This document shows positions 6,387-16,667 of a stretch of 26,805 bases of DNA, piece after piece. The stretch lies in contig JAZGDW010000160.1 in assembly GCA_036478295.1 (NCBI GenBank), positions 1-26,805 of the forward strand, read 5' to 3'. This DNA is from Candidatus Krumholzibacteriia bacterium. Lineage in GTDB: Bacteria > Krumholzibacteriota > Krumholzibacteriia > WVZY01. The notes below the pieces were generated by a model. The model worked only from the letters and a program-made list of their open reading frames with translations, was not told the origin of the DNA and searched no databases. Each line of letters opens with the position of its first letter. Within the stretch, counting starts at the first letter, position 1. A program made the translations under genes and the position numbers.

Positions 6387-6998
6387 ATGCAGCTAGTCGT
6401 ATTGAGCGATACCCACGGGAATCACCGAGACATCGCCGTTCCCGACGGCGACCTGCTGATCCATGCAGGGGACTTCGGTTCGATGTTCGGCAGCATCGAC
6501 GAGCTGCGCGAATTCAACGACTTTCTGGGTGAGCTTCCCCACCGGCACAAGATATTTGTCGCCGGCAATCATGACTTCTGCTTCGAGCGCGAGAACGAAG
6601 ACGCCCGCAACACTCTGACCAACGCCCGCTACCTCCAGGACGAGTCCGTCGAGATCGAAGGCGTGAAATTCTACGGCAGCCCCTACCAGCCCCAGTTCTT
6701 GAATTGGGCCTTCAACCTGCCCCGCGGCCAGCCGTTGTGGCGCAAGTGGCAGCTCATACCGCCGGACACGGACGTGCTCATAACCCATTGCCCGCCTCAT
6801 GGCATTGGAGACCGTACGTATTATCGGCGCCACGTTGGTTGCAAGGAACTGCTCGCCCGCGTCACGGAGGTGAAACCCCGGCTGCATGTCTTCGGGCATA
6901 TTCACGAGGCCAGGGGACGATATGAGGTGGGAGAGACGGTGTTCATAAATGCGACGACCGACCGAAACGAACGCGCACCGTTTGTGCTAGAATTGTAG
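6387..6998 (+). CDS. Calcineurin-like metallophosphoesterase (MPPED2/239FB-like)
   Basis: Motifs SDTH, HAGD, AGNHD, THCPP and FGHIHE. ATG 6387. Confidence 0.92.
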   Translation: MQLVVLSDTHGNHRDIAVPDGDLLIHAGDFGSMFGSIDELREFNDFLGELPHRHKIFVAGNHDFCFERENEDARNTLTNARYLQDESVEIEGVKFYGSPYQPQFLNWAFNLPRGQPLWRKWQLIPPDTDVLITHCPPHGIGDRTYYRRHVGCKELLARVTEVKPRLHVFGHIHEARGRYEVGETVFINATTDRNERAPFVLEL

Positions 6999-7086
6999 TT
7001 TCGGTTACTTTGCGGCCCGGCCGCGCAGCCACACTCCCGGCTCGCGGACGGCGTCCGGGTCACGTTGTATTTCTAGGAGCTAACGA

Positions 7087-7374
7087 ATGGCAGCATATAT
7101 CATTGGTGAGGTCGAAATAACCGACCCGGAGAAGTATCAGGAATACATCAAGGTCGTCCCCGAAACCATCGCCGCATACGGAGGCACCTTCCGCGTGCGG
7201 GGTGGAAAGGCCGAGAATCTCGAAGGCGCTTGGGATCCCAAACGCGTCATCGTGTTGGAATTCGAAAGCATGGAGCGCGCGAAGGAGTGGTGGGCCTCGG
7301 ACGAATACAAGAACCCCAAGGCGATGCGGCAGGCCGCCTCGACCGCCAGAATGATCATCGTCGACGGTGTGTGA
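7087..7374 (+). CDS. DUF1330 family protein
   Basis: MAAYII.EV.ITDPEKY.EY...YGG.F.VRGG...LEG.W.P.RVIVLEFESME.A..WW.S.EY. AGGAG RBS upstream. Confidence 0.92.
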   Translation: MAAYIIGEVEITDPEKYQEYIKVVPETIAAYGGTFRVRGGKAENLEGAWDPKRVIVLEFESMERAKEWWASDEYKNPKAMRQAASTARMIIVDGV

Positions 7375-7417
7375 GACGCCGCGCCCGCAGTACCCGAGTG
7401 CGAGAACGAACTGGCTC

Positions 7418-7446
7418 TTGACAATTTCGTTTCTCCGCCACATCTT
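7418..7446 (+). promoter_or_regulatory. Putative sigma70 promoter upstream of the CCCCAC tract
   Basis: Perfect TTGACA (7418-7423), 17-nt spacer, weak -10 CATCTT (7441-7446). Confidence 0.45.
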
Positions 7447-7456
7447 GCAATTAGCG

Positions 7457-7690
7457 ATCCACAACGAAAACCCCACGAAACATCCGTACGGCAAGGGTGC
7501 CGCAGCACCACGAATCCCCACAATAGCGACAGGCCCCACAGGGAACCCCACATAGTCCCACGTCAAGGCACCCCACAAGAGATGGCCCCACACAAGAATA
7601 CCCCACAGACAAACCGCACAACAGGAGCCCCATCAGCAAGCTCGCTTCCCACGGCGAGGGAAACTCCGTAAGCGCTTTCCCCCATACGGA
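7457..7690 (+). repeat. A/C-rich intergenic tract with dispersed CCCCAC motifs; candidate ncRNA or structured 5' leader
   Basis: Exact CCCCAC at 7471, 7516, 7534, 7546, 7571, 7586 and 7601. Variants at 7556, 7614, 7628, 7647 and 7680. Hairpins at 7641-7658 and 7665-7690. Confidence 0.7.
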
Positions 7691-7733
7691 ATGTGCTTCG
7701 CCTCACACGTCAGTGACACAAAGGGGGACGAAT

Positions 7734-9740
7734 ATGTCATTTGCTAAGAGGGTTGCCACCGTTCTACTCATACTCGGTCTCATCGCCTGCGCATCGGCTT
7801 CATCTGAGCTGCGTTCAGAAGCGGTGGGTGGCTACGGGCAGATCACCGGCCGGATATTCGCTCTCAGGGCCGATACGTCGCTCGCATTTGCGAACATCAT
7901 CATCGTTGGCGCAAATAAAGGAGCCATGAGCCTCCGGGATGGTCGCTTTACCATCCGTGACGTTTTTCCCGGGACATACACGGTAAAGGTGATGATGATG
8001 GGCTACAAGACACTCGAGATACGAAACGTCGTCGTCCGAGCCAACGAAACGGTTGAGATGAGGTGTCGTCTCACGGAAACGATTGTCTCCGAAACACAGA
8101 TCATCGAAGTCACCGGCGAGAGGAAAGTAATCGACGTCTCAGCCAACGGCGTTCGCTCGTCCGTGACCAGGTCCGAGGTCAAGGCGGGCGACAGACTGTC
8201 CGTCCGCGGTGGCCGCTCGGGGGAGATCACGACGCGGATTAGCGGCCGAGGGCGGCGGCCGGCCACGCCGATCCAGCGGTCGGAGAGCGCGATACAACGG
8301 CAGCGGCATCTCGTGCCCAATAACGAGGCCTACGCCCGGGTCGATGCAAATAAATTTTTGAGCGTCATTGAGAAACCGATGTCGACCTTTTCGATCGACG
8401 TGGATGCCGCGTCATACAGCAATCTCAGGCGCTTTATCCGGGGGAACACGCTGCCCCCTGCGCATGCAGTTCGCGTCGAGGAACTCATCAACTATTTCAG
8501 ATACGACTATCCGGAACCGGACGAGTCACAACCGTTCTCGATCACCACCGAGATGTCCGATTGCCCGTGGAACGTGACTAACAAGCTCGTCCACATCGGT
8601 CTGCAGGGAAAGCGACTCATGCTGGAGGACCTGCCGCCGAGCAATCTCGTGTTTCTTCTCGACGTTTCTGGGTCAATGAAGCCGGCGAACAAGCTGCCCC
8701 TCGTTAAAAGCGCCATAAGGCTTCTCACCAGAGAATTACGCCGGAACGACCGGGTGGCGCTCGTGGCCTACAACAGCACGGTGAGTCTGTGTCTGCCTTC
8801 GACGCGGGGTGACCAGAAACGAACGATTCTTGACGCGGTCGATCGCCTGCAAGCGAGAGGGTCGACGGCGGGTGCCGCCGGTCTCCGGCTCGCATATGCG
8901 GTTGCCCGCAAGAATTTTCTGAAGAAGGGTAACAACCGGGTCATCCTGGCAACCGATGGTGACTTCAACGTTGGTGTCTCGAGCGATCACGAACTGGTGC
9001 AGCTGATCGAAAAAGAACGGGAGAGCGGTGTATTCCTGTCCATTATGGGCTTTGGCACCGGCAACCTCAAGGATTCCAAATTGGAGAAGATTGCCGATAA
9101 GGGCAACGGCCACTACGCCTACATCGACAATATCCTCGAAGCCAAGAAAGTGCTGATTAGGGAAATCGGCGCTACGCTGTTCACGATAGCCAAGGACGTC
9201 AAGATCCAGATCGAATTCAATCCGGCGAAGGTAAAAAGCTACCGGCTCATCGGTTATGAGAACCGGGTCCTCGAGAAGGAGGATTTCAACAACGACAAGA
9301 AGGACGCCGGCGAGCTGGGAGCCGGACACTCCGTTACCGCGCTCTACGAAGTCGTTCCGGTCGGACCGGACGGGGATCTTTCCTACCTGGACGAGTTCAA
9401 GTATTTCCATGTGGGAATCGATCCCGACGCGTTCGCGAGTCGGGAGATCCTGACGGTGAGCTTTCGTTACAAGCCACCGGCGGGCGACACCAGCCGGCTC
9501 ATCACAAAGACCGTGATGGAAAGCGATACCCGGTTTGATAAGGCTTCCGACGATTTTCGTTTTTCCGCCGCCGTCGCCGAATTCGGTATGCTCCTTGGGG
9601 ATTCCGCATACAAGGGCAAAGCGTGTTTCGAGGACGTGCTGGCAGTGGCCAAGGAGGCTAAGGGCAAGGACGAGCAAGGCTACCGGGCCGAATTCATCCA
9701 GCTCGTGGAAATATGCTCGTTGCTCACAAAGAACCAATAG
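7734..9740 (+). CDS. YfbK-like von Willebrand factor A protein (CarboxypepD_reg-like + vWF_A + VWA + DUF3520), exported
   Basis: Signal peptide with possible lipobox LIAC. N-terminal G.ITGRI...LAFANIII.G...GRFTI..V.PGTYTV domain. PMSTFSIDVDAASYSN, MIDAS DVSGS, ILATDGDFNVG, TIAKDVKIQIEFNP, YRLIGYENR and DAGELGAGHSVTALYE. Confidence 0.92.
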   Translation: MSFAKRVATVLLILGLIACASASSELRSEAVGGYGQITGRIFALRADTSLAFANIIIVGANKGAMSLRDGRFTIRDVFPGTYTVKVMMMGYKTLEIRNVVVRANETVEMRCRLTETIVSETQIIEVTGERKVIDVSANGVRSSVTRSEVKAGDRLSVRGGRSGEITTRISGRGRRPATPIQRSESAIQRQRHLVPNNEAYARVDANKFLSVIEKPMSTFSIDVDAASYSNLRRFIRGNTLPPAHAVRVEELINYFRYDYPEPDESQPFSITTEMSDCPWNVTNKLVHIGLQGKRLMLEDLPPSNLVFLLDVSGSMKPANKLPLVKSAIRLLTRELRRNDRVALVAYNSTVSLCLPSTRGDQKRTILDAVDRLQARGSTAGAAGLRLAYAVARKNFLKKGNNRVILATDGDFNVGVSSDHELVQLIEKERESGVFLSIMGFGTGNLKDSKLEKIADKGNGHYAYIDNILEAKKVLIREIGATLFTIAKDVKIQIEFNPAKVKSYRLIGYENRVLEKEDFNNDKKDAGELGAGHSVTALYEVVPVGPDGDLSYLDEFKYFHVGIDPDAFASREILTVSFRYKPPAGDTSRLITKTVMESDTRFDKASDDFRFSAAVAEFGMLLGDSAYKGKACFEDVLAVAKEAKGKDEQGYRAEFIQLVEICSLLTKNQ

Positions 9741-9865
9741 CCCCGTGGGCCGTGTGCCGGGCATTTTCGCGCGATGCTTGAGGCCGCTCACTCTGCGAAA
9801 GTGCCCGCACATGCGCCCACCATGCAGCCCCTGTTGCCGGGGGTAGTTCACAGGGAGGTTTGTAC

Positions 9866-10489
9866 ATGGTTGCTCTGTCTCAGTTGGTAAATGCCGAGTT
9901 CAAAGCGCGGCACCCGGGCTATCTACGGCGGGCGCTGGTGGCCGCCGTGGCGCTTCACTTCCTGCTCTTTGCATTCGCGCCGCCGTTCACGTCCAAGCCG
10001 TACCGGCTGCCGGTTGTACAGGAGTTCGTTGTCGAGGAGATCGTTGAATTCACTTTCCCGGAGCCGCCGCCCAAAGTCGTCGTGCCGGATAATCTCGCTA
10101 CGTGCGTTGACCCCGGGGAAGATCCGGTAGACATTGCCGAACCATCGCCCGACCGGTTCAAAGAAATCGCCATCGACCCCAAGCCGCCGTCGGCCACCGT
10201 TGCGTTCCTTGCCTACGACGAAATGCCCATCCTCATTAATTACACGATTCCGGAATACCCCACCCTGGCCCGGGAGGCTGGCCTCGAAGGTACGGTGCGG
10301 GTGAAGATCGTTGTGGGCCGCGATGGCAAGGTCAAGAGCGCATCGATATTATCGTCTGACGTCACACCGGCGATGGAACAGGCGGCGATGGAAGCGGCGA
10401 AGCGGTGCACGTTCAAACCGGCACGGCAACGGAGCATCCCGGTTCGCGCGACCGTGATGATCCCCTATAAGTTCCGGCTCAACCGGTAG
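9866..10489 (+). CDS. tonB: Energy transducer TonB family protein
   Basis: N-terminal TM helix with His (ALHFLLF), Pro-rich linker, and TonB_C domain (PEYPTLAREAGLEGTVRV...DGKV...FKPARQ...V.ATVMIPYKFRL). GGGAGG RBS. Confidence 0.88.
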   Translation: MVALSQLVNAEFKARHPGYLRRALVAAVALHFLLFAFAPPFTSKPYRLPVVQEFVVEEIVEFTFPEPPPKVVVPDNLATCVDPGEDPVDIAEPSPDRFKEIAIDPKPPSATVAFLAYDEMPILINYTIPEYPTLAREAGLEGTVRVKIVVGRDGKVKSASILSSDVTPAMEQAAMEAAKRCTFKPARQRSIPVRATVMIPYKFRLNR

Positions 10490-10522: not shown

Positions 10523-10649
10523 ATGACAGCATGCTGTCAAGTAGATGACAGTATGCTGTCAAGTGGATGACAGTATGCTGTCAAGTGGATGGCAGTATGC
10601 TGTCAAGTGGATGACAGTATGCTGTCAAGTGGATGACAGTATGCTGTCA
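10523..10649. repeat. 22-bp tandem repeat (~5.8 copies) with an internal palindrome
   Basis: Unit ATGACAGTATGCTGTCAAGTGG starts at 10523, 10545, 10567, 10589, 10611 and 10633 (partial). There are no spacers. The first unit holds the perfect palindrome TGACAGCATGCTGTCA. Confidence 0.95.
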
Positions 10650-10773: not shown

Positions 10774-11652
10774 ATGATTGCACGAAAATGCATGACCTTG
10801 TTTTCTGGCTTGTTGCTGTGTTTCGCGGCTGGAGTGGTTGAACGCCCATCGCCCGCCGCAGCGGCCGGGGACGAAGTACCGAACGGGCTCTACACACAGA
10901 CCAGCGATTCCTCCGCCCCGCTCATAACGACCCAGGACGGGATAGAGCTCCGTCTCGGTGGCAAACACGAGATCCGGATAAACAAAGCGGAACTCTATTC
11001 GCAGAACAACGCGAACACGTCATTCAATCTAACACTCACCACACCGTTTGAGCCGCAGCCCGATGCCACTCCTTACAAACTGCTCGCCGTAGGAGGTGTC
11101 ATTTACCGGCAAACGGGCTCGGGGGAGACGGAGGGTAAGAGCTCTTCCGTTTATTTCCACATCTCCGGGCAAGACCGGGCCAGGGTGGTTGCCGAGCACT
11201 TCGGCATCGAGCCCAGGTTCAGGACACACCCGCGACACCAGTTCGAAGTTTCGTTCGAGCCCGTAAAGAACGAATTCCAGACAGGAGAAGACGTGCGGGT
11301 CACGCTGCGTATCACGAACGTCGGCGACCACACAATTGCGTTCATGAAGGGTGGCAGGAACCGGGCGGAGAGAGACAACCAGTACGTCTTCTCTGCGAGA
11401 CACAAGGGCAGGCAGGTCGACGACATCGGCACCAGTTATCATTTTGGAGGACTGTCCGTCAAACGTGTCCTGAAACCCGGTGAGACTTTCGAAGACCATG
11501 TGGATCTCGGCAAGTGGTTCTCTTTCGAGAAGCCCGGTTTTTACGAACTCCTCGGTTCGTACTACATGGCGTTCTACTCGCCCGAAGGCAGCGACTGGTA
11601 TACTATCTGGGAAGATTACGCAACCGGCGAATGTGTCCTGACGGTCAAGTAA
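10774..11652 (+). CDS. Secreted hypothetical protein with a probable C-terminal Ig-like beta-sandwich
   Basis: Signal-like N-terminus (MIARKCMTLFSGLLLCFAAG). C-terminal F..GEDVRVTLRITNVGD...LKPGETF...PG.YEL pattern. The track start 10633 lies inside the tandem repeat and is unlikely. Confidence 0.7.
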   Translation: MIARKCMTLFSGLLLCFAAGVVERPSPAAAAGDEVPNGLYTQTSDSSAPLITTQDGIELRLGGKHEIRINKAELYSQNNANTSFNLTLTTPFEPQPDATPYKLLAVGGVIYRQTGSGETEGKSSSVYFHISGQDRARVVAEHFGIEPRFRTHPRHQFEVSFEPVKNEFQTGEDVRVTLRITNVGDHTIAFMKGGRNRAERDNQYVFSARHKGRQVDDIGTSYHFGGLSVKRVLKPGETFEDHVDLGKWFSFEKPGFYELLGSYYMAFYSPEGSDWYTIWEDYATGECVLTVK

Positions 11653-11796
11653 ACCCGGTTGCGGTCGCCGGTACCGCTGATGGCCTTCACCGGAAGCTGA
11701 TTCTTATCATGAATCAGAGGTTTGCAGCATGTCGCCGGAACCACAAGCGCAGCTCCATCCGGGATTACCCTAAGCCCTACAAAAAATCGCCGTTTG

Positions 11797-11805
11797 TGCT
11801 ATAAT
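11797..11805 (+). promoter_or_regulatory. Extended -10 promoter (TGCTATAAT) of the first BACON-repeat gene
   Basis: TG-C-TATAAT about 45 nt before the start codon. The same element is conserved before the paralog. Confidence 0.7.
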
Positions 11806-11849
11806 TACGGTGGCCTGATACTCCGGCTTTCACTCACAGGGGGCTTGTG

Positions 11850-14036
11850 ATGAAGCGGACTCTCCTTTGCGCCCTGATTCTCTTTCTCGTTCCCCAGTTC
11901 GCAGCCGCACAGCTCGGTACGGTCTGTCTTTTTTCGGATCAAAACGGTAACGATTGTAGCCTCAGCGATACCGTACCGGGGCTGCTCACCGTCTACGCGA
12001 TTCACACGTTCGTGGCGGGGGCGGTCGCGGTCCAGTTCTCGGCGCCAAAGCCGTCCTGCATGGCGGGTGCGACCTGGATAGATGACACCTGGCCCTTCCC
12101 GGTGACGATCGGCGACTCGCAAAGCAATGTTGCCATCGGCTACGGGGGATGCCTGACGGGAACGGTACACGTCCTGTCGATAAACTACGCCGTGTCGGGC
12201 ACGACGACGGCGGACTGTCCATACAAGGTGCTGCCCGCGACAGGACAGTTCGAGATCCAGGCGGTGGATTGCGATAACAACCAGGTGACGGCCGACGGCG
12301 GAACGACTTACATCAACTCGAGCATCGTCTGCGACTGCTCCGGCACCCTGCCCACCCCACCGGTGCTGGCGGTGATGCCGCTGAGTCTGGATTTTGGGAC
12401 GACCGACAGCGTCATGACCCTTCAAGTCAGTAATGTTGGGGGCAGCACGCTCTCGTGGCTGGTTTACCGCAACCCAACAAACTGGCTCTCCGTGGCCCCG
12501 ATATCGGGAGTGGACAACGGTTCGATCACCGTTACGGTCAACCGCGTGGGCCTTCCACCAGGCACGCACACGGGTGTCGTGAACGTGGTGTCAAACGGCG
12601 GCGCGATCGACGTACCCGTTTCCCTGACCACTGTCCCACCTCCTCCACCCCCTCCAACACTGGGCGTGAGCCCCACCGGTCTGAATTTCGGAGCGACGTC
12701 AACTTTAGGACAGTTTACTATCTTTAATAACGGCGGCCCCACACTGACCTGGAATATCACGAACGCCGAGCCGTGGCTCGTCGTCCTGCCGTCCAGTGGC
12801 ACCGAAACGACGACTATCAACGCCACCGTGGACCGAGCGGGACTGACGCTTGGCACCTATAGCGATACGATCAAAGTAACATCCAACGGCGGCAACGCGA
12901 ACGTCCTGGTGGCGATGACCGTTCTAACCCCTCCCACGCCGGCGCCGATCCTGGACTTCACGCCCACGTCGCTGTCTTTCCCGATAGGGACGGACAGCTT
13001 GCTACTGGACATCCTGAACGTCGGCACGCTCGACCTGTTGTGGAACATCACCCCCGACCAGCCCTGGTTGACCGTGGACCCCGCCTCTGGCACGAACGAC
13101 ACGCCGGTGGCCGTGGAGGTGGACCGGACGGGACTCGGTGACGGCACCTTCAACGGCAACCTGTCGATCACGTCGAACGGCGGCAGCGGCACGGTGCCGG
13201 TGTCGATGACGGTGACAACGGTCCCCATCTTGTGGGTGAGCAAGTCTCATTTGAGTTTTGGCCAATCGACTGCGCAACGGGCCTTTCTCATCGAGAACCG
13301 GGGTGTCGGTACGCTCAACTGGTCACTGAGCGACGATCGGAACTGGATCCACATCGACCCGCCGCTCTCCGGCAGTGGTGATAACACCGTTACGGTACGC
13401 GTGAACCAGGACTCGGTACCGTTGGGCAGCCAACAGTCTGGAACCATCACAGTGGATTCGAACGGCGGCACGGCATCGATCACCGTGAGCTTCTCGTGGC
13501 CTACGGGTACCGCTGGCATCATCGGCGTGTACGGAGATCCGAGCGGGACGAACTGCAACCTCATAGATCGAAGCCCCGGCTTGCTTTCTGTGTACGTTGT
13601 CCATCAGAGCACACCCGGGGCAACGGCGTCGCAGTTTTCCGCACCGATACCCAGTTGCTGGGCGGGAGCGACTTACCTGTCGGATACGAACATCTTTCCG
13701 GTAACGGTCGGCAACTCGCAGACCGGCATAACCATCGCATACGGGGCCTGTGTCACGCCGCCCATCCACGTCTTGACGATCAATTACGCCGTGACGGGCA
13801 TTGGCACCCCGTGCTGCCAATACGACGTGCTGCCCGATCCCAGCGCTCCGTCCGGGCAGATTGTTGCCGTCGATTGCTTATTCATTGACCTCCCTGGCTT
13901 CGGCTTCCCCGGTATGGTCAATGCGACGACCGCATGCTGGTGCGGGGGTGCTCTAAGTGTGGAAGAAACCACGTGGGGCCACATCAAGGCGATTTATTAC
14001 GGTCCGGGAACCACCACCAGGATACAGAAGAAGTGA
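11850..14036 (+). CDS. Secreted surface protein: Cys-rich domain + 4 BACON-like repeats + Cys-rich domain + TWGHIKAIY tail
   Basis: Signal peptide ending AAA-Q. Four ~92-aa repeats P.L...P.SL.F...N.G...L.W...WL.V.P.SG...V.V.R.GL..G...G.I...SNGG. The N- and C-terminal Cys-rich domains are homologous. Confidence 0.85.
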   Translation: MKRTLLCALILFLVPQFAAAQLGTVCLFSDQNGNDCSLSDTVPGLLTVYAIHTFVAGAVAVQFSAPKPSCMAGATWIDDTWPFPVTIGDSQSNVAIGYGGCLTGTVHVLSINYAVSGTTTADCPYKVLPATGQFEIQAVDCDNNQVTADGGTTYINSSIVCDCSGTLPTPPVLAVMPLSLDFGTTDSVMTLQVSNVGGSTLSWLVYRNPTNWLSVAPISGVDNGSITVTVNRVGLPPGTHTGVVNVVSNGGAIDVPVSLTTVPPPPPPPTLGVSPTGLNFGATSTLGQFTIFNNGGPTLTWNITNAEPWLVVLPSSGTETTTINATVDRAGLTLGTYSDTIKVTSNGGNANVLVAMTVLTPPTPAPILDFTPTSLSFPIGTDSLLLDILNVGTLDLLWNITPDQPWLTVDPASGTNDTPVAVEVDRTGLGDGTFNGNLSITSNGGSGTVPVSMTVTTVPILWVSKSHLSFGQSTAQRAFLIENRGVGTLNWSLSDDRNWIHIDPPLSGSGDNTVTVRVNQDSVPLGSQQSGTITVDSNGGTASITVSFSWPTGTAGIIGVYGDPSGTNCNLIDRSPGLLSVYVVHQSTPGATASQFSAPIPSCWAGATYLSDTNIFPVTVGNSQTGITIAYGACVTPPIHVLTINYAVTGIGTPCCQYDVLPDPSAPSGQIVAVDCLFIDLPGFGFPGMVNATTACWCGGALSVEETTWGHIKAIYYGPGTTTRIQKK

Positions 14037-14159
14037 ACCCGGCTTGTTGGAACAAGCACCGCGAGCCGGCGGGCCGACGACTGGAATGAGTGCCGTGACC
14101 GCGAGCGGTGCTCGCTCCACCAAGCGCAGCCCCAATCCCTACAAAAAAATCACCTTTTG

Positions 14160-14168
14160 TGCTATAAT
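14160..14168 (+). promoter_or_regulatory. Extended -10 promoter (TGCTATAAT) of the second BACON-repeat gene
   Basis: Same motif and similar leader as 11797-11805. Confidence 0.7.
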
Positions 14169-14213
14169 TACCGTGGCCTGGTCCTCCGGCCTTCACTTAC
14201 AAGGGGGCTTGTG

Positions 14214-16667
14214 ATGAAGCAGACTCTTCTTTGCGCCCTGATACTTGTTCTCCTTCCCCAGCTCGCAGCTGCACAGCTCGGTACGGTCTGTCTTTTTTCC
14301 GATCAAAACGGTAGCGACTGTAGCCTGAGTGATACCGCACCGGGGCTGCTCACCGTCTACGTGATTCACACGTTCGTGCCGGGGGCGACCGCAGTCCAGT
14401 TCTCGGCGCCAAAGCCGTCCTGCATGGTGGGTGCTACCTGGATAAGTGACACGTGGCCCTTTCCGGTGACGATCGGCGACTCGCAGAGCGACGTCGCCAT
14501 CGGCTACGGGGGATGCCTGACGGGAACGGTACACGTCCTGTCGATAAACTACTCCGCGTCGGGTACGACGACGGCGGACTGTCCGTACAAGGTGCTGCCC
14601 GCGACAGGACAGTTCGAGATCCAGGCGGTGGATTGCGATAACAACCAGGTGACGGCGAACGGCGGGACGACGTACATCAACTCGAGCATCGCCTGCGAGT
14701 GCTCCGGCACCCTGCCCGCCCCGCCGGTGCTGGCGGTGACGCCGCTGAGCCTGGATTTTGGGATGATCGACAGCGTCATGACGCTTCAAGTCAGTAATAT
14801 CGGGGGCAGCACGCTGTCATGGTTGGTGTACCGCAGCCCCACGACGTGGATCTCGGTTAGCCCGATATCGGGAGTGGACAACGGTTCGATCACGGTCACG
14901 GTCAACCGCGTGGGGCTTCCACCAGGCACGCACACAGGTGTCGTGAACGTCGTATCGAACGGCGGCGTGATCAACGTACCCGTCTCCCTAACCATGGCCC
15001 CACCCCCTCCGGCGCTGCTCGTGAACCCCTCCAGTCTGGACTTTGGAACGACGGCGACTTTGGACCAATTTACCATCTTCAATAACGGCGGCCCCACACT
15101 GACCTGGAATATCACGAACGCCGAGCCGTGGCTCGTCGTCCTGCCGTCGAGTGGCACCGAAACGACGACCATCAACGCCACGGTGGACCGGACAGGACTG
15201 TCGCTGGGCGCGCACGGGGATACGATCAAGGTGACATCCAACGGCGGCAACGCGAACATCCTGGTGGCAATGACCGTTCTGGAGCCGGCACCGGTTCTGA
15301 CCTTCACGCCCCCATCGCTGTCTTTCCCGATGGGCGTGGATAGCCTGCCATTGGACATCATGAACGTCGGTCTGCTGGACCTCCTGTGGGATATCGCGAG
15401 CGATCAACCGTGGCTGAGTGTACAACCCGCCGCCGGCACCAACGATACCCAGGTAATGGTACGTGTGGACCGGACGGGACTCGCTGACGGGACTTTCAAC
15501 GGCAACCTGTCGATCACGTCGAACGGCGGTAGCGGTACGGTGCCGGTGTCAATAACCGTGGTAAACCCGGCACCCATTCTGGGATTCACGCCCCTGTCGC
15601 TCTCGTTCCCGGTGGGCACGGACAGCCTGGCACTTTTTATCCTGAACGACGGCCCGCTCGACCTGTTCTGGAACATCACCCCCGATCAGCCGTGGTTGAC
15701 CGTAGACCCCGCCTCCGGTACGAACGACACGCCGGTGGCCGTAGAGGTGGATCGGGCGGGACTCGCTGACGGGACGTTCAACGGCAACCTGTCGATCACG
15801 TCGAACGGCGGCAGCGGTACGGTGCCGGTCACGTTGACCGTGGCAACGGTCCCCGTTTTGTGGGTGAGCACCTCTCAATTGAGCTTCACGTCATCGACCA
15901 CGGTGCGATCGTTCGCCATCCAGAACAGGGGTGTCGGTACGCTCAGCTGGTCACTGAGCGCCGACCAGAGCTGGATCCACATCGATCCGCCGCTATCCGG
16001 CAGCGGCGCTACCTCGGTTACGGTCCGCGTAAATCCGGACTCGGTACCGGCGGGCGACCAGCAGCTCGGGAATGTCACTGTGGATTCGAACGGCGGCACG
16101 GCACTAATCGCCGTGAGCTTCTCGCGTGCTCCGACAGGTGTCGCGGGCGTCCTCGGCTTGTACGGGGATCCGAGCGGTACGGACTGCAACATAGTAGATC
16201 AGACCCCCGGCTTGGTTAACGTGTTCATCGTCCATCAGTACACGACTGGGGCAACGGCGGTTCAGTTTTCAGCACCGATGCCCAGTTGCTGGGCGGGAGC
16301 GACTTATCTGTCGGATGTACTACCCTTCCCGTTGAGTGTCGGCAATTCGCAAACCGGAATCAGTCTCGCATACGGCGCGTGTCTCGTATCGCCGATAACC
16401 GTCATGAGCATTGCTTACTTCGGGACGGGCATTGGTACCCCGTGCTGCGAATACCCCGTGCTACCCGATCCTAGCGTGCCGGAGGGGCAGATACTGGTCA
16501 CCGATTGCGGATTTACCAACATCTTCGGCCTCGGCGCCCCCGGGTATATCAATGCAAACGCGACATGTCCGTGTGGCCTCGTGACGAGTGTCCACGAGAT
16601 GACGTGGGGCCACATCAAGGCCCTTTATCACGCTTCGGAGGCCACCACGCGGACGGAGAAGAAGTAA
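14214..16667 (+). CDS. Paralog of the preceding gene: Cys-rich domain + 5 BACON-like repeats + Cys-rich domain + TWGHIKALY tail
   Basis: N-terminus is near-identical (MKQTLLCALIL...AAAQLGTVCLFSDQNG) and there is one extra repeat. Start set by analogy (GGGGGCTTGTGATG). Confidence 0.85.
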   Translation: MKQTLLCALILVLLPQLAAAQLGTVCLFSDQNGSDCSLSDTAPGLLTVYVIHTFVPGATAVQFSAPKPSCMVGATWISDTWPFPVTIGDSQSDVAIGYGGCLTGTVHVLSINYSASGTTTADCPYKVLPATGQFEIQAVDCDNNQVTANGGTTYINSSIACECSGTLPAPPVLAVTPLSLDFGMIDSVMTLQVSNIGGSTLSWLVYRSPTTWISVSPISGVDNGSITVTVNRVGLPPGTHTGVVNVVSNGGVINVPVSLTMAPPPPALLVNPSSLDFGTTATLDQFTIFNNGGPTLTWNITNAEPWLVVLPSSGTETTTINATVDRTGLSLGAHGDTIKVTSNGGNANILVAMTVLEPAPVLTFTPPSLSFPMGVDSLPLDIMNVGLLDLLWDIASDQPWLSVQPAAGTNDTQVMVRVDRTGLADGTFNGNLSITSNGGSGTVPVSITVVNPAPILGFTPLSLSFPVGTDSLALFILNDGPLDLFWNITPDQPWLTVDPASGTNDTPVAVEVDRAGLADGTFNGNLSITSNGGSGTVPVTLTVATVPVLWVSTSQLSFTSSTTVRSFAIQNRGVGTLSWSLSADQSWIHIDPPLSGSGATSVTVRVNPDSVPAGDQQLGNVTVDSNGGTALIAVSFSRAPTGVAGVLGLYGDPSGTDCNIVDQTPGLVNVFIVHQYTTGATAVQFSAPMPSCWAGATYLSDVLPFPLSVGNSQTGISLAYGACLVSPITVMSIAYFGTGIGTPCCEYPVLPDPSVPEGQILVTDCGFTNIFGLGAPGYINANATCPCGLVTSVHEMTWGHIKALYHASEATTRTEKK

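Follow-up and report, generated by a model that had tools for sequence, protein, structure and literature searches.

CCCCAC repeats upstream of yfbK and tonB, and a candidate leader motif of exported-protein genes in an order of Krumholzibacteriia

The leaders bound by CsrA/RsmA and the sponges CsrB/RsmZ are built from a short repeated word with free linkers, and their multiple sites provide avidity. Cuckoo RNAs, which are alphaproteobacterial, carry CCUCCUCCC in their loops. A box of the GTGGGG type is found at mraZ promoters of other orders and is presumably the known MraZ box of dcw promoters. In one account, CsrA is described as recognizing GGA in hairpin loops and acting by repression, and its homologs in Krumholzibacteriota as rarely predicted to be functional (PMC13443453). 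The GcvB regulon, as outlined in PMC3879156, has C/A-rich (ACA) enhancers upstream of the Shine-Dalgarno sequence (SD) in mRNAs of transporters, where one leader may hold several of them at flexible positions. The Bacteroides protein RbpB (RRM-1) and the FopS sRNAs are described as controlling SusC-like/TonB-dependent transporter mRNAs (PMC11697453, PMC13370968, PMC12119571); the motif described in the first two of these sources is a 41-nt sRNA motif rather than a leader hexamer (PMC11697453, PMC13370968).

Here we describe an intergenic array of the word CCCCAC, which is likely to be an expanded version, with about 12 copies, of an order-wide leader motif of exported-protein genes.

The CCCCAC array upstream of yfbK and tonB

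The window, by which we mean the whole analysed stretch of 26,805 nt, contains a gap of 359 nt between a DUF1330 gene and a CarboxypepD_reg/vWA/YfbK gene. The features of this region, all on the plus strand, are as follows.

7087-7374, +: DUF1330 gene (Pfam PF07045), the boundary of the gap and outside the element
7418-7423, +: -35-like hexamer TTGACA (yfbK orthologs have TTGAC in the corresponding position)
7441-7446, +: -10-like hexamer CATCTT, of putative function (CA(T/G/C)NTT in orthologs)
7453-7733, +: predicted 5' leader of about 280 nt of the vWA/YfbK-tonB genes, without a plus-strand terminator and continuing into SD and ATG; its start near 7453 is placed by promoter geometry
7471-7606, +: seven exact CCCCAC with CACCAC (7506) and TCCCAC (7556), A/C-rich and weakly folded
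7614-7633, +: variants CCGCAC (7614) and CCCCAT (7628)
7641-7658, +: predicted 6-bp hairpin whose loop is exactly UCCCAC (-7.1 kcal/mol, z -3.0)
7665-7690, +: weak predicted hairpin with CCCCAU in the loop (-4.7 kcal/mol, z -1.5)
7720-7728, +: Shine-Dalgarno-like AAAGGGGGA (canonical anti-SD in relatives)
7734-9740, +: gene for a CarboxypepD_reg, vWF_A, VWA and YfbK_C protein (Pfam) of 668 aa, with a signal peptide by our own hydropathy rule
9805-9820, +: variants CCGCAC and GCCCAC between yfbK and tonB
9866-10489, +: TonB (energy transducer) gene (PF03544, TIGR01352)

Seven exact copies of CCCCAC start at 7471, 7516, 7534, 7546, 7571, 7586 and 7601, as counted in the original prediction, and the variants it had seen are also there: seven words in the gap differ by one mismatch (CACCAC at 7506; TCCCAC at 7556 and 7647; CCGCAC at 7614; CCCCAT at 7628 and 7680; CCTCAC at 7701). 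Overall, the array amounts to about 12 copies. Dinucleotide shuffling of 7418-7690 yields at most five CCCCAC, none of 5000 shuffles reaching seven, and at least seven copies of some hexamer, whatever its sequence, arise in 12 of 5000 such shuffles. The 7471-7601 array is the densest CCCCAC cluster of the 3.5-Mb genome, the runner-up having 4 in 250 nt, and its 9 CCCAC are the highest number seen in any leader (at most 6 elsewhere). Tandem Repeats Finder reports no array at this stretch.

The A/C-rich, T-poor composition ascribed to the region is also evident, with 35% A, 39% C, 20% G and 6% T in 7453-7640. Overall, the predicted fold of 7450-7735 is close to that of its shuffles (z 0.11), and most CCCCAC copies lie outside stem-loops. 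The two 3' hairpins proposed to display the motif in their loops are the only ones; that at 7641-7658 holds up well, and that at 7665-7690 is weak.

The proposed promoter, TTGACA-17-CATCTT, is present at 7418-7446 and its layout is kept in yfbK orthologs, although a consensus scanner does not call it. The G-run ribosome-binding sites described alongside it are likewise present. There is no terminator-like site on the plus strand in 6900-8100, hence none between the array and the ATG at 7734. A coding remnant, an alternative that the original prediction itself had raised, is ruled out by motifs in all three frames and a stop in each plus frame. The Rfam scan it had proposed returns no match at the gathering score in the window and none at E<=5 for 7300-7800, and 10 related loci also give 0 matches at the gathering score. 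No DNA homolog of 7380-7740 occurs among 40 relatives, and a metagenome scan contains no close relative of the window's yfbK leader.

Elsewhere in the window, a 22-nt tandem repeat (5.8 copies, 96% matches) lies just past tonB at 10523-10649, and two tandem BACON-domain paralogs have a near-duplicated promoter and short leader (11652-11850 and 14036-14214), which lack CCCCAC.

Recurrence in the order and among exported-protein genes

A search for CCCCAC clusters in related genomes, also part of the original prediction, shows that half of the order's genomes (18/36) have triple clusters, versus 3/36 for a reversed control; these counts overstate independence, the genomes compared being kin. Outside the order, motif and reversed control score the same (38/115 genomes each). 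Among the 27 cluster loci of the order, 15 are sense-strand leaders of a few recurring families, namely 822-aa, 452-aa and 410-aa secreted proteins, 768-aa lipoproteins, TonB and YfbK, and the remaining 12 lie in or opposite long frames or have no resolved context.

For stand-alone yfbK genes, every readable leader (12/12) holds at least one CCCAC, with a range of 1-9, one of these loci having been selected by its match to the cluster pattern. Orthologs of the window gene carry 1-5 copies in shorter leaders. A second yfbK clade has CCCAC in 0/9 leaders; TTGAC is also absent, and a sigma-factor gene lies two genes upstream in 4/9. These counts exclude five loci with cut-off upstream DNA, three others and two of other orders. 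Upstream of yfbK homologs in other lineages, CCCCAC is found in 0 of 74 cases. The tonB-like genes of three relatives have 3-4 motif copies each.

The pattern is most regular upstream of TonB-dependent receptor (TBDR) orthologs, where all 29 readable leaders contain two CCCCAC (a thirtieth locus is cut off). The linkers between them vary from 30 to 57 nt and are divergent in sequence, and each is predicted to fold into hairpins (mean z -2.1; z below -1 in 24/29); RNAalifold finds no covarying pair in the TBDR leader alignment. About 3 kb past the TBDR promoter, a further CCCCAC occupies an intercistronic gap in the host genome (hereafter G000) and in 4/8 genomes of the same family, and in 0/12 genomes of a second family. 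For the 822-aa secreted protein, 29 of 30 orthologs have a CCCAC no more than 200 nt upstream; in the mostly operon-internal 768-aa lipoprotein family, only 14/29 have it. Leaders hold 12-17 CCCAC per kb versus 0.4 GTGGG per kb, and flanking DNA holds 1.0 CCCAC per kb in the 822-aa family and 4.1 per kb in the TBDR family.

The combination TTGAC-N32-35-CCCCAC has 224 matches in 35 genomes of the order versus 141 for a control, a modest excess. A collection-wide scan for promoter plus motif gives mostly chance matches, and of 20 matches picked by hand outside the order, only two precede the same exported families. In another order, two CCCCAC are kept in the leader of a cytoplasmic-looking gene (L596, L598) that we read as ScpA-like.

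The association with exported proteins extends to the whole of G000, in which our own gene caller predicts 2925 genes and a crude hydropathy rule in our scripts defines signal-peptide-like products. CCCCAC lies 12-120 nt before the start codon in 42 of 441 signal-peptide-like, 6 of 146 membrane-protein and 29 of 1093 other genes. By this measure it heads a ranking of 3912 hexamers by association with signal-peptide-like genes (42/441, against 35/1239 for the others; OR 3.6, p 8e-8, z 5.6). The reverse complement, GTGGGG, is not enriched there (OR 0.7), and the near-words CCCCAT, CCCCGC and CCCCAG are not significant (OR 1.4-1.5). By gap type, the OR is 4.5 for divergent and 3.4 for long co-directional gaps; short promoter-less gaps (1/92 vs 7/366) and coding sequence show no enrichment. 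The exact word is carried by only about 10% of signal-peptide-like genes. After the window array, the next CCCCAC clusters of G000 lie before two TBDR genes, behind TTGACA-17-(C/T)ATATT. Three longer AATCCCCACTTG-type repeats, unlike the leader pattern, are found upstream of the promoter-like site of a lipoprotein gene (G000:C54, ~12500-12610, minus strand; L124).

CCCCAC is real and more general than originally seen, and appears to be a lineage-specific leader motif of exported-protein genes. Our literature search, mainly of open-access texts with supplements outside its scope, found no description of a CCCCAC leader motif.

Possible readers of the motif

With slightly better than even confidence, we regard the gap as the yfbK-tonB 5' leader and its CCCCAC copies as RNA sites for a putative sequence-specific protein by which exported proteins would be co-regulated, probably in the positive direction. 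That the copies are read as RNA, and by a protein, is what we infer from their arrangement: RNA recognition is favored by the single orientation, free spacing, hairpin-forming linkers, intercistronic copy and low information of a 6-mer. In a survey of 85 leaders with 196 CCCAC, the word is preceded by C in 162 cases and by T in 25, and 69 spacings range from 7 to 39 nt without a 10-11-nt helical phase (Rayleigh p 0.22-0.37). In all 84 motif-bearing leaders, 17 nt or more separate the last copy from the start codon, and the SD is never overlapped. With near-duplicates left out, predicted motif exposure exceeds that of shuffled leaders in 21/25 TBDR leaders and 17/27 of the 822-aa family; in the window it is not above the shuffles (0.66 vs 0.64).

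The CCCCAC copies would serve as single-stranded docking sites for such an RNA-binding protein, which, once bound, would raise expression by protecting the 5' end, helping ribosome loading or delivering the mRNA to the export machinery. We guess with moderate confidence at raised expression rather than a ribosome block, because the SD is free of copies throughout and the extreme 5' end frequently carries one. The number of copies, from 1 to about 12, might then set the strength of each mRNA's response, which is also a guess.

Pairing of the motif with G-rich ribosome-binding sites, another suggestion of the original prediction, fares poorly. Folding gives inconsistent motif-to-SD pairing (mean 0.15-0.16), with the SD freed by more than 0.1 in 12 of 52 leaders. 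All three 16S tails read from relatives have the ordinary CCUCCUUU and a canonical anti-SD; an anti-SD switch is not supported. In many leaders of the 822-aa family (alignment A2, L240-L267), the SD is hidden in a pyrimidine-rich hairpin arm; promoters of this family have TTGAC plus TG and often miss the -11 A of a canonical -10.

A serious, if unlikely, rival is that the copies are DNA operators, in which case a lineage-specific transcription factor would bind envelope-protein promoters through an asymmetric 6-mer located at the start site and downstream from it. The first copy follows TTGAC by 37-40 nt in 28 leaders, which fixes it at about +2 to +5, a typical operator position. In TBDR leaders, a conserved extended -10-like block immediately precedes motif 1, which would span a possible second start site, and four TBDR promoters have a copy within the -35/-10 spacer. 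The motif density of TBDR flanks, the restriction of the genome-wide enrichment to gaps likely to contain promoters and the period-10 GTGGGG repeats at mraZ-like promoters of other orders also speak for operators. Against them stand the single orientation, the lack of helical phasing, the linkers that form hairpins and the poor DNA address that a lone 6-mer with 2073 copies in G000 would make. MraZ in particular is unlikely as the reader, given the different box in the order and spacings that lack a 10-bp period: mraZ promoters of the order carry TCCC(T/A)A boxes, with C on top and a spacing of about 10 nt, and no CCCCAC repeats.

Two observations touch on these promoters. The boxes at mraZ in the order (G000:C59 upstream region; L211-L229, L231-L232, L234-L237) run in the opposite orientation to the GTGGGG/GTGGGA boxes that other orders have. 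In the TBDR alignment (A1, columns 42-96; L268-L297), the stretch from the first promoter to motif 1 includes a conserved GAAGTC block and an extended -10-like TRTGnTAnnGT, and these could form a second, activator-dependent promoter.

Returning to an RNA-binding protein as the reader, we consider it quite unlikely that CCCCAC is an address label for secreted, outer-membrane and TonB-system transcripts, by which a dedicated protein, possibly an RRM protein, would couple translation to the export machinery; the window would then be the highest-avidity version of the label. Genes for CsrA are found in 0/36 genomes of the order, and neither Hfq nor NusG is found in G000; since NusG is among these, the assembly misses genes and absences from this single genome are weak. 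The gene content of G000 includes two RRM loci, five cold-shock loci and Rho, and 40/41 relatives have RRM genes. Putative as the assignment is, RRM proteins are the leading candidates for the CCCCAC reader. Their own upstream regions contain exact CCCCAC in only 1/29 cases, and no exact array lies upstream of RRM or cold-shock genes.

The 5' leader of one RRM clade is strongly conserved and includes GCCAC, CCGCAC and UCCAC-like words, which are not invariant (L131, i.e., G000:C256 upstream of 5696; L519, L625, L626, L628, L629, L631, L632, L634-L637, L640-L644); three tested loci of this clade have no Rfam match. This leader is possibly an autoregulatory RNA, and its CCAC/CCGCAC words offer a weak lead to the CCCCAC reader. 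Two more RRM clades (L492, L494-L499, L501, L502; L503-L509) each have a conserved leader of their own, without an Rfam match for L494 and L504.

It is improbable that the copies are seed-pairing targets of a trans-acting sRNA carrying GUGGGG, in the manner of GcvB or FopS. The commonest variants, UCCCAC and CCCCAU, would retain G-U pairing, and the outer-membrane and secreted proteins concerned resemble the FopS targets named in PMC11697453. The host genome does have one element of promoter-like site, GUGGGG, GC hairpin and U-run, about 60 nt long and upstream of a 138-aa gene (G000:C45:30861(-); L531). However, in a sequence-based and therefore weak search for a conserved GUGGGG sRNA, none of 35 other genomes of the order matches this element at E<=0.001 (best 0.008), and its pattern is found in 0/35. 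The varying flanks of the hexamer leave a seed of just 5-6 nt, the CCGCAC variants would break the pairing, and the apparent lack of Hfq in G000 also argues against this mechanism. A similar-looking GUGGGG site on C136 was rejected; it is antisense to a reading frame. Pairing with SRP RNA is not supported either, as five genomes show no conserved exposed GUGGGG in it. The large SRP RNA is full-length in three first-family genomes (L551, i.e., G000:C249; L549; L550), and the second-family genomes L552 and L553 match only a shorter form.

Very doubtful is the use of the motif by general machinery, as a Rho loading site or an ACA/S1-type translation enhancer without a dedicated regulator. The stretch 7453-7640 is C/A-rich, G-poor and weakly folded, Rho is present, and ACA motifs are described as boosting translation in Salmonella (PMC3879156). 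Such an origin is hard to reconcile with single isolated hexamers that are invariant within structured leaders, and in G000 signal-peptide leaders differ little in base composition from other leaders. To our knowledge, rut or ACA elements do not need the specificity of invariant single hexamers.

We hold it highly improbable that the window encodes a stand-alone, CsrB-like sponge sRNA that titrates the reader of the motif. The original prediction had left open an sRNA or a long leader of the vWA-tonB operon, and it is the leader, together with an RNA-binding protein, that fits. The unmatched copy number and the hairpin with the motif in its loop would suit a sponge, and release by premature termination or processing is possible. 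Against a sponge, no terminator precedes the SD, the region lacks a DNA homolog in 40 relatives, and the motif is shared by unrelated exported-protein leaders and by ordinary orthologous ones with 1-5 copies.

Replication-origin iterons are a practically negligible alternative, largely excluded by gene context: the Pfam-annotated proteins of the window include no rep/primase or mobile-element gene, the AT-richest 60-mer nearby is only 55% AT and thus no AT-rich core, and the motif tracks chromosomal exported-protein genes across the order. A minus-strand G-quadruplex (9 GGGG runs) was set aside because single-copy leaders are unable to form one.

Significance and comparison with known systems

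CCCCAC is a regulon-scale cis-motif defined by sequence alone, in an uncultured lineage in which CsrA was not found, and its link is with exported proteins and not with any single pathway. As such, it provides a ready bait for a new global RNA-binding regulator, and with copy numbers that vary naturally from 1 to about 12 it lends itself to tests of dose and mechanism in reporter hosts. Should the motif prove to direct mRNAs to the export machinery, it would be relevant to how bacteria target mRNAs independently of translation.

Like cuckoo RNAs, the window repeats a C-rich word and has one copy in a hairpin loop; unlike them, it has no Rfam match at E<=5, most of its copies lie outside stem-loops, and no anti-SD switch is predicted. 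The reverse complement of the motif resembles the boxes at mraZ promoters of other orders; CCCCAC is on the opposite strand, however, without a 10-nt period, and mraZ of the order uses TCCC(T/A)A. As in the GcvB regulon, the CCCCAC leaders hold several C/A-rich words upstream of the SD at flexible positions, but the word is a fixed hexamer rather than ACA, Hfq was not found in G000, and no conserved complementary sRNA was found. With RbpB/FopS, the order has in common RRM genes, an apparent lack of Hfq/CsrA and TonB-dependent transporter mRNAs as putative targets, whereas no multicopy sRNA family was found in it.

The targets of CsrA/CsrB offer a further parallel, in that the window also repeats a short word with free linkers, sometimes in hairpin loops. 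The word is CCCCAC instead of the GGA of CsrB/RsmZ, in genomes where CsrA was not found (0/36), its copies never overlap the SD, and there is no terminator-bounded sponge. What the CCCCAC leaders display is the arrangement expected of an RNA-binding-protein regulon, a strand-specific motif between promoter and start codon that is kept against divergent linkers.
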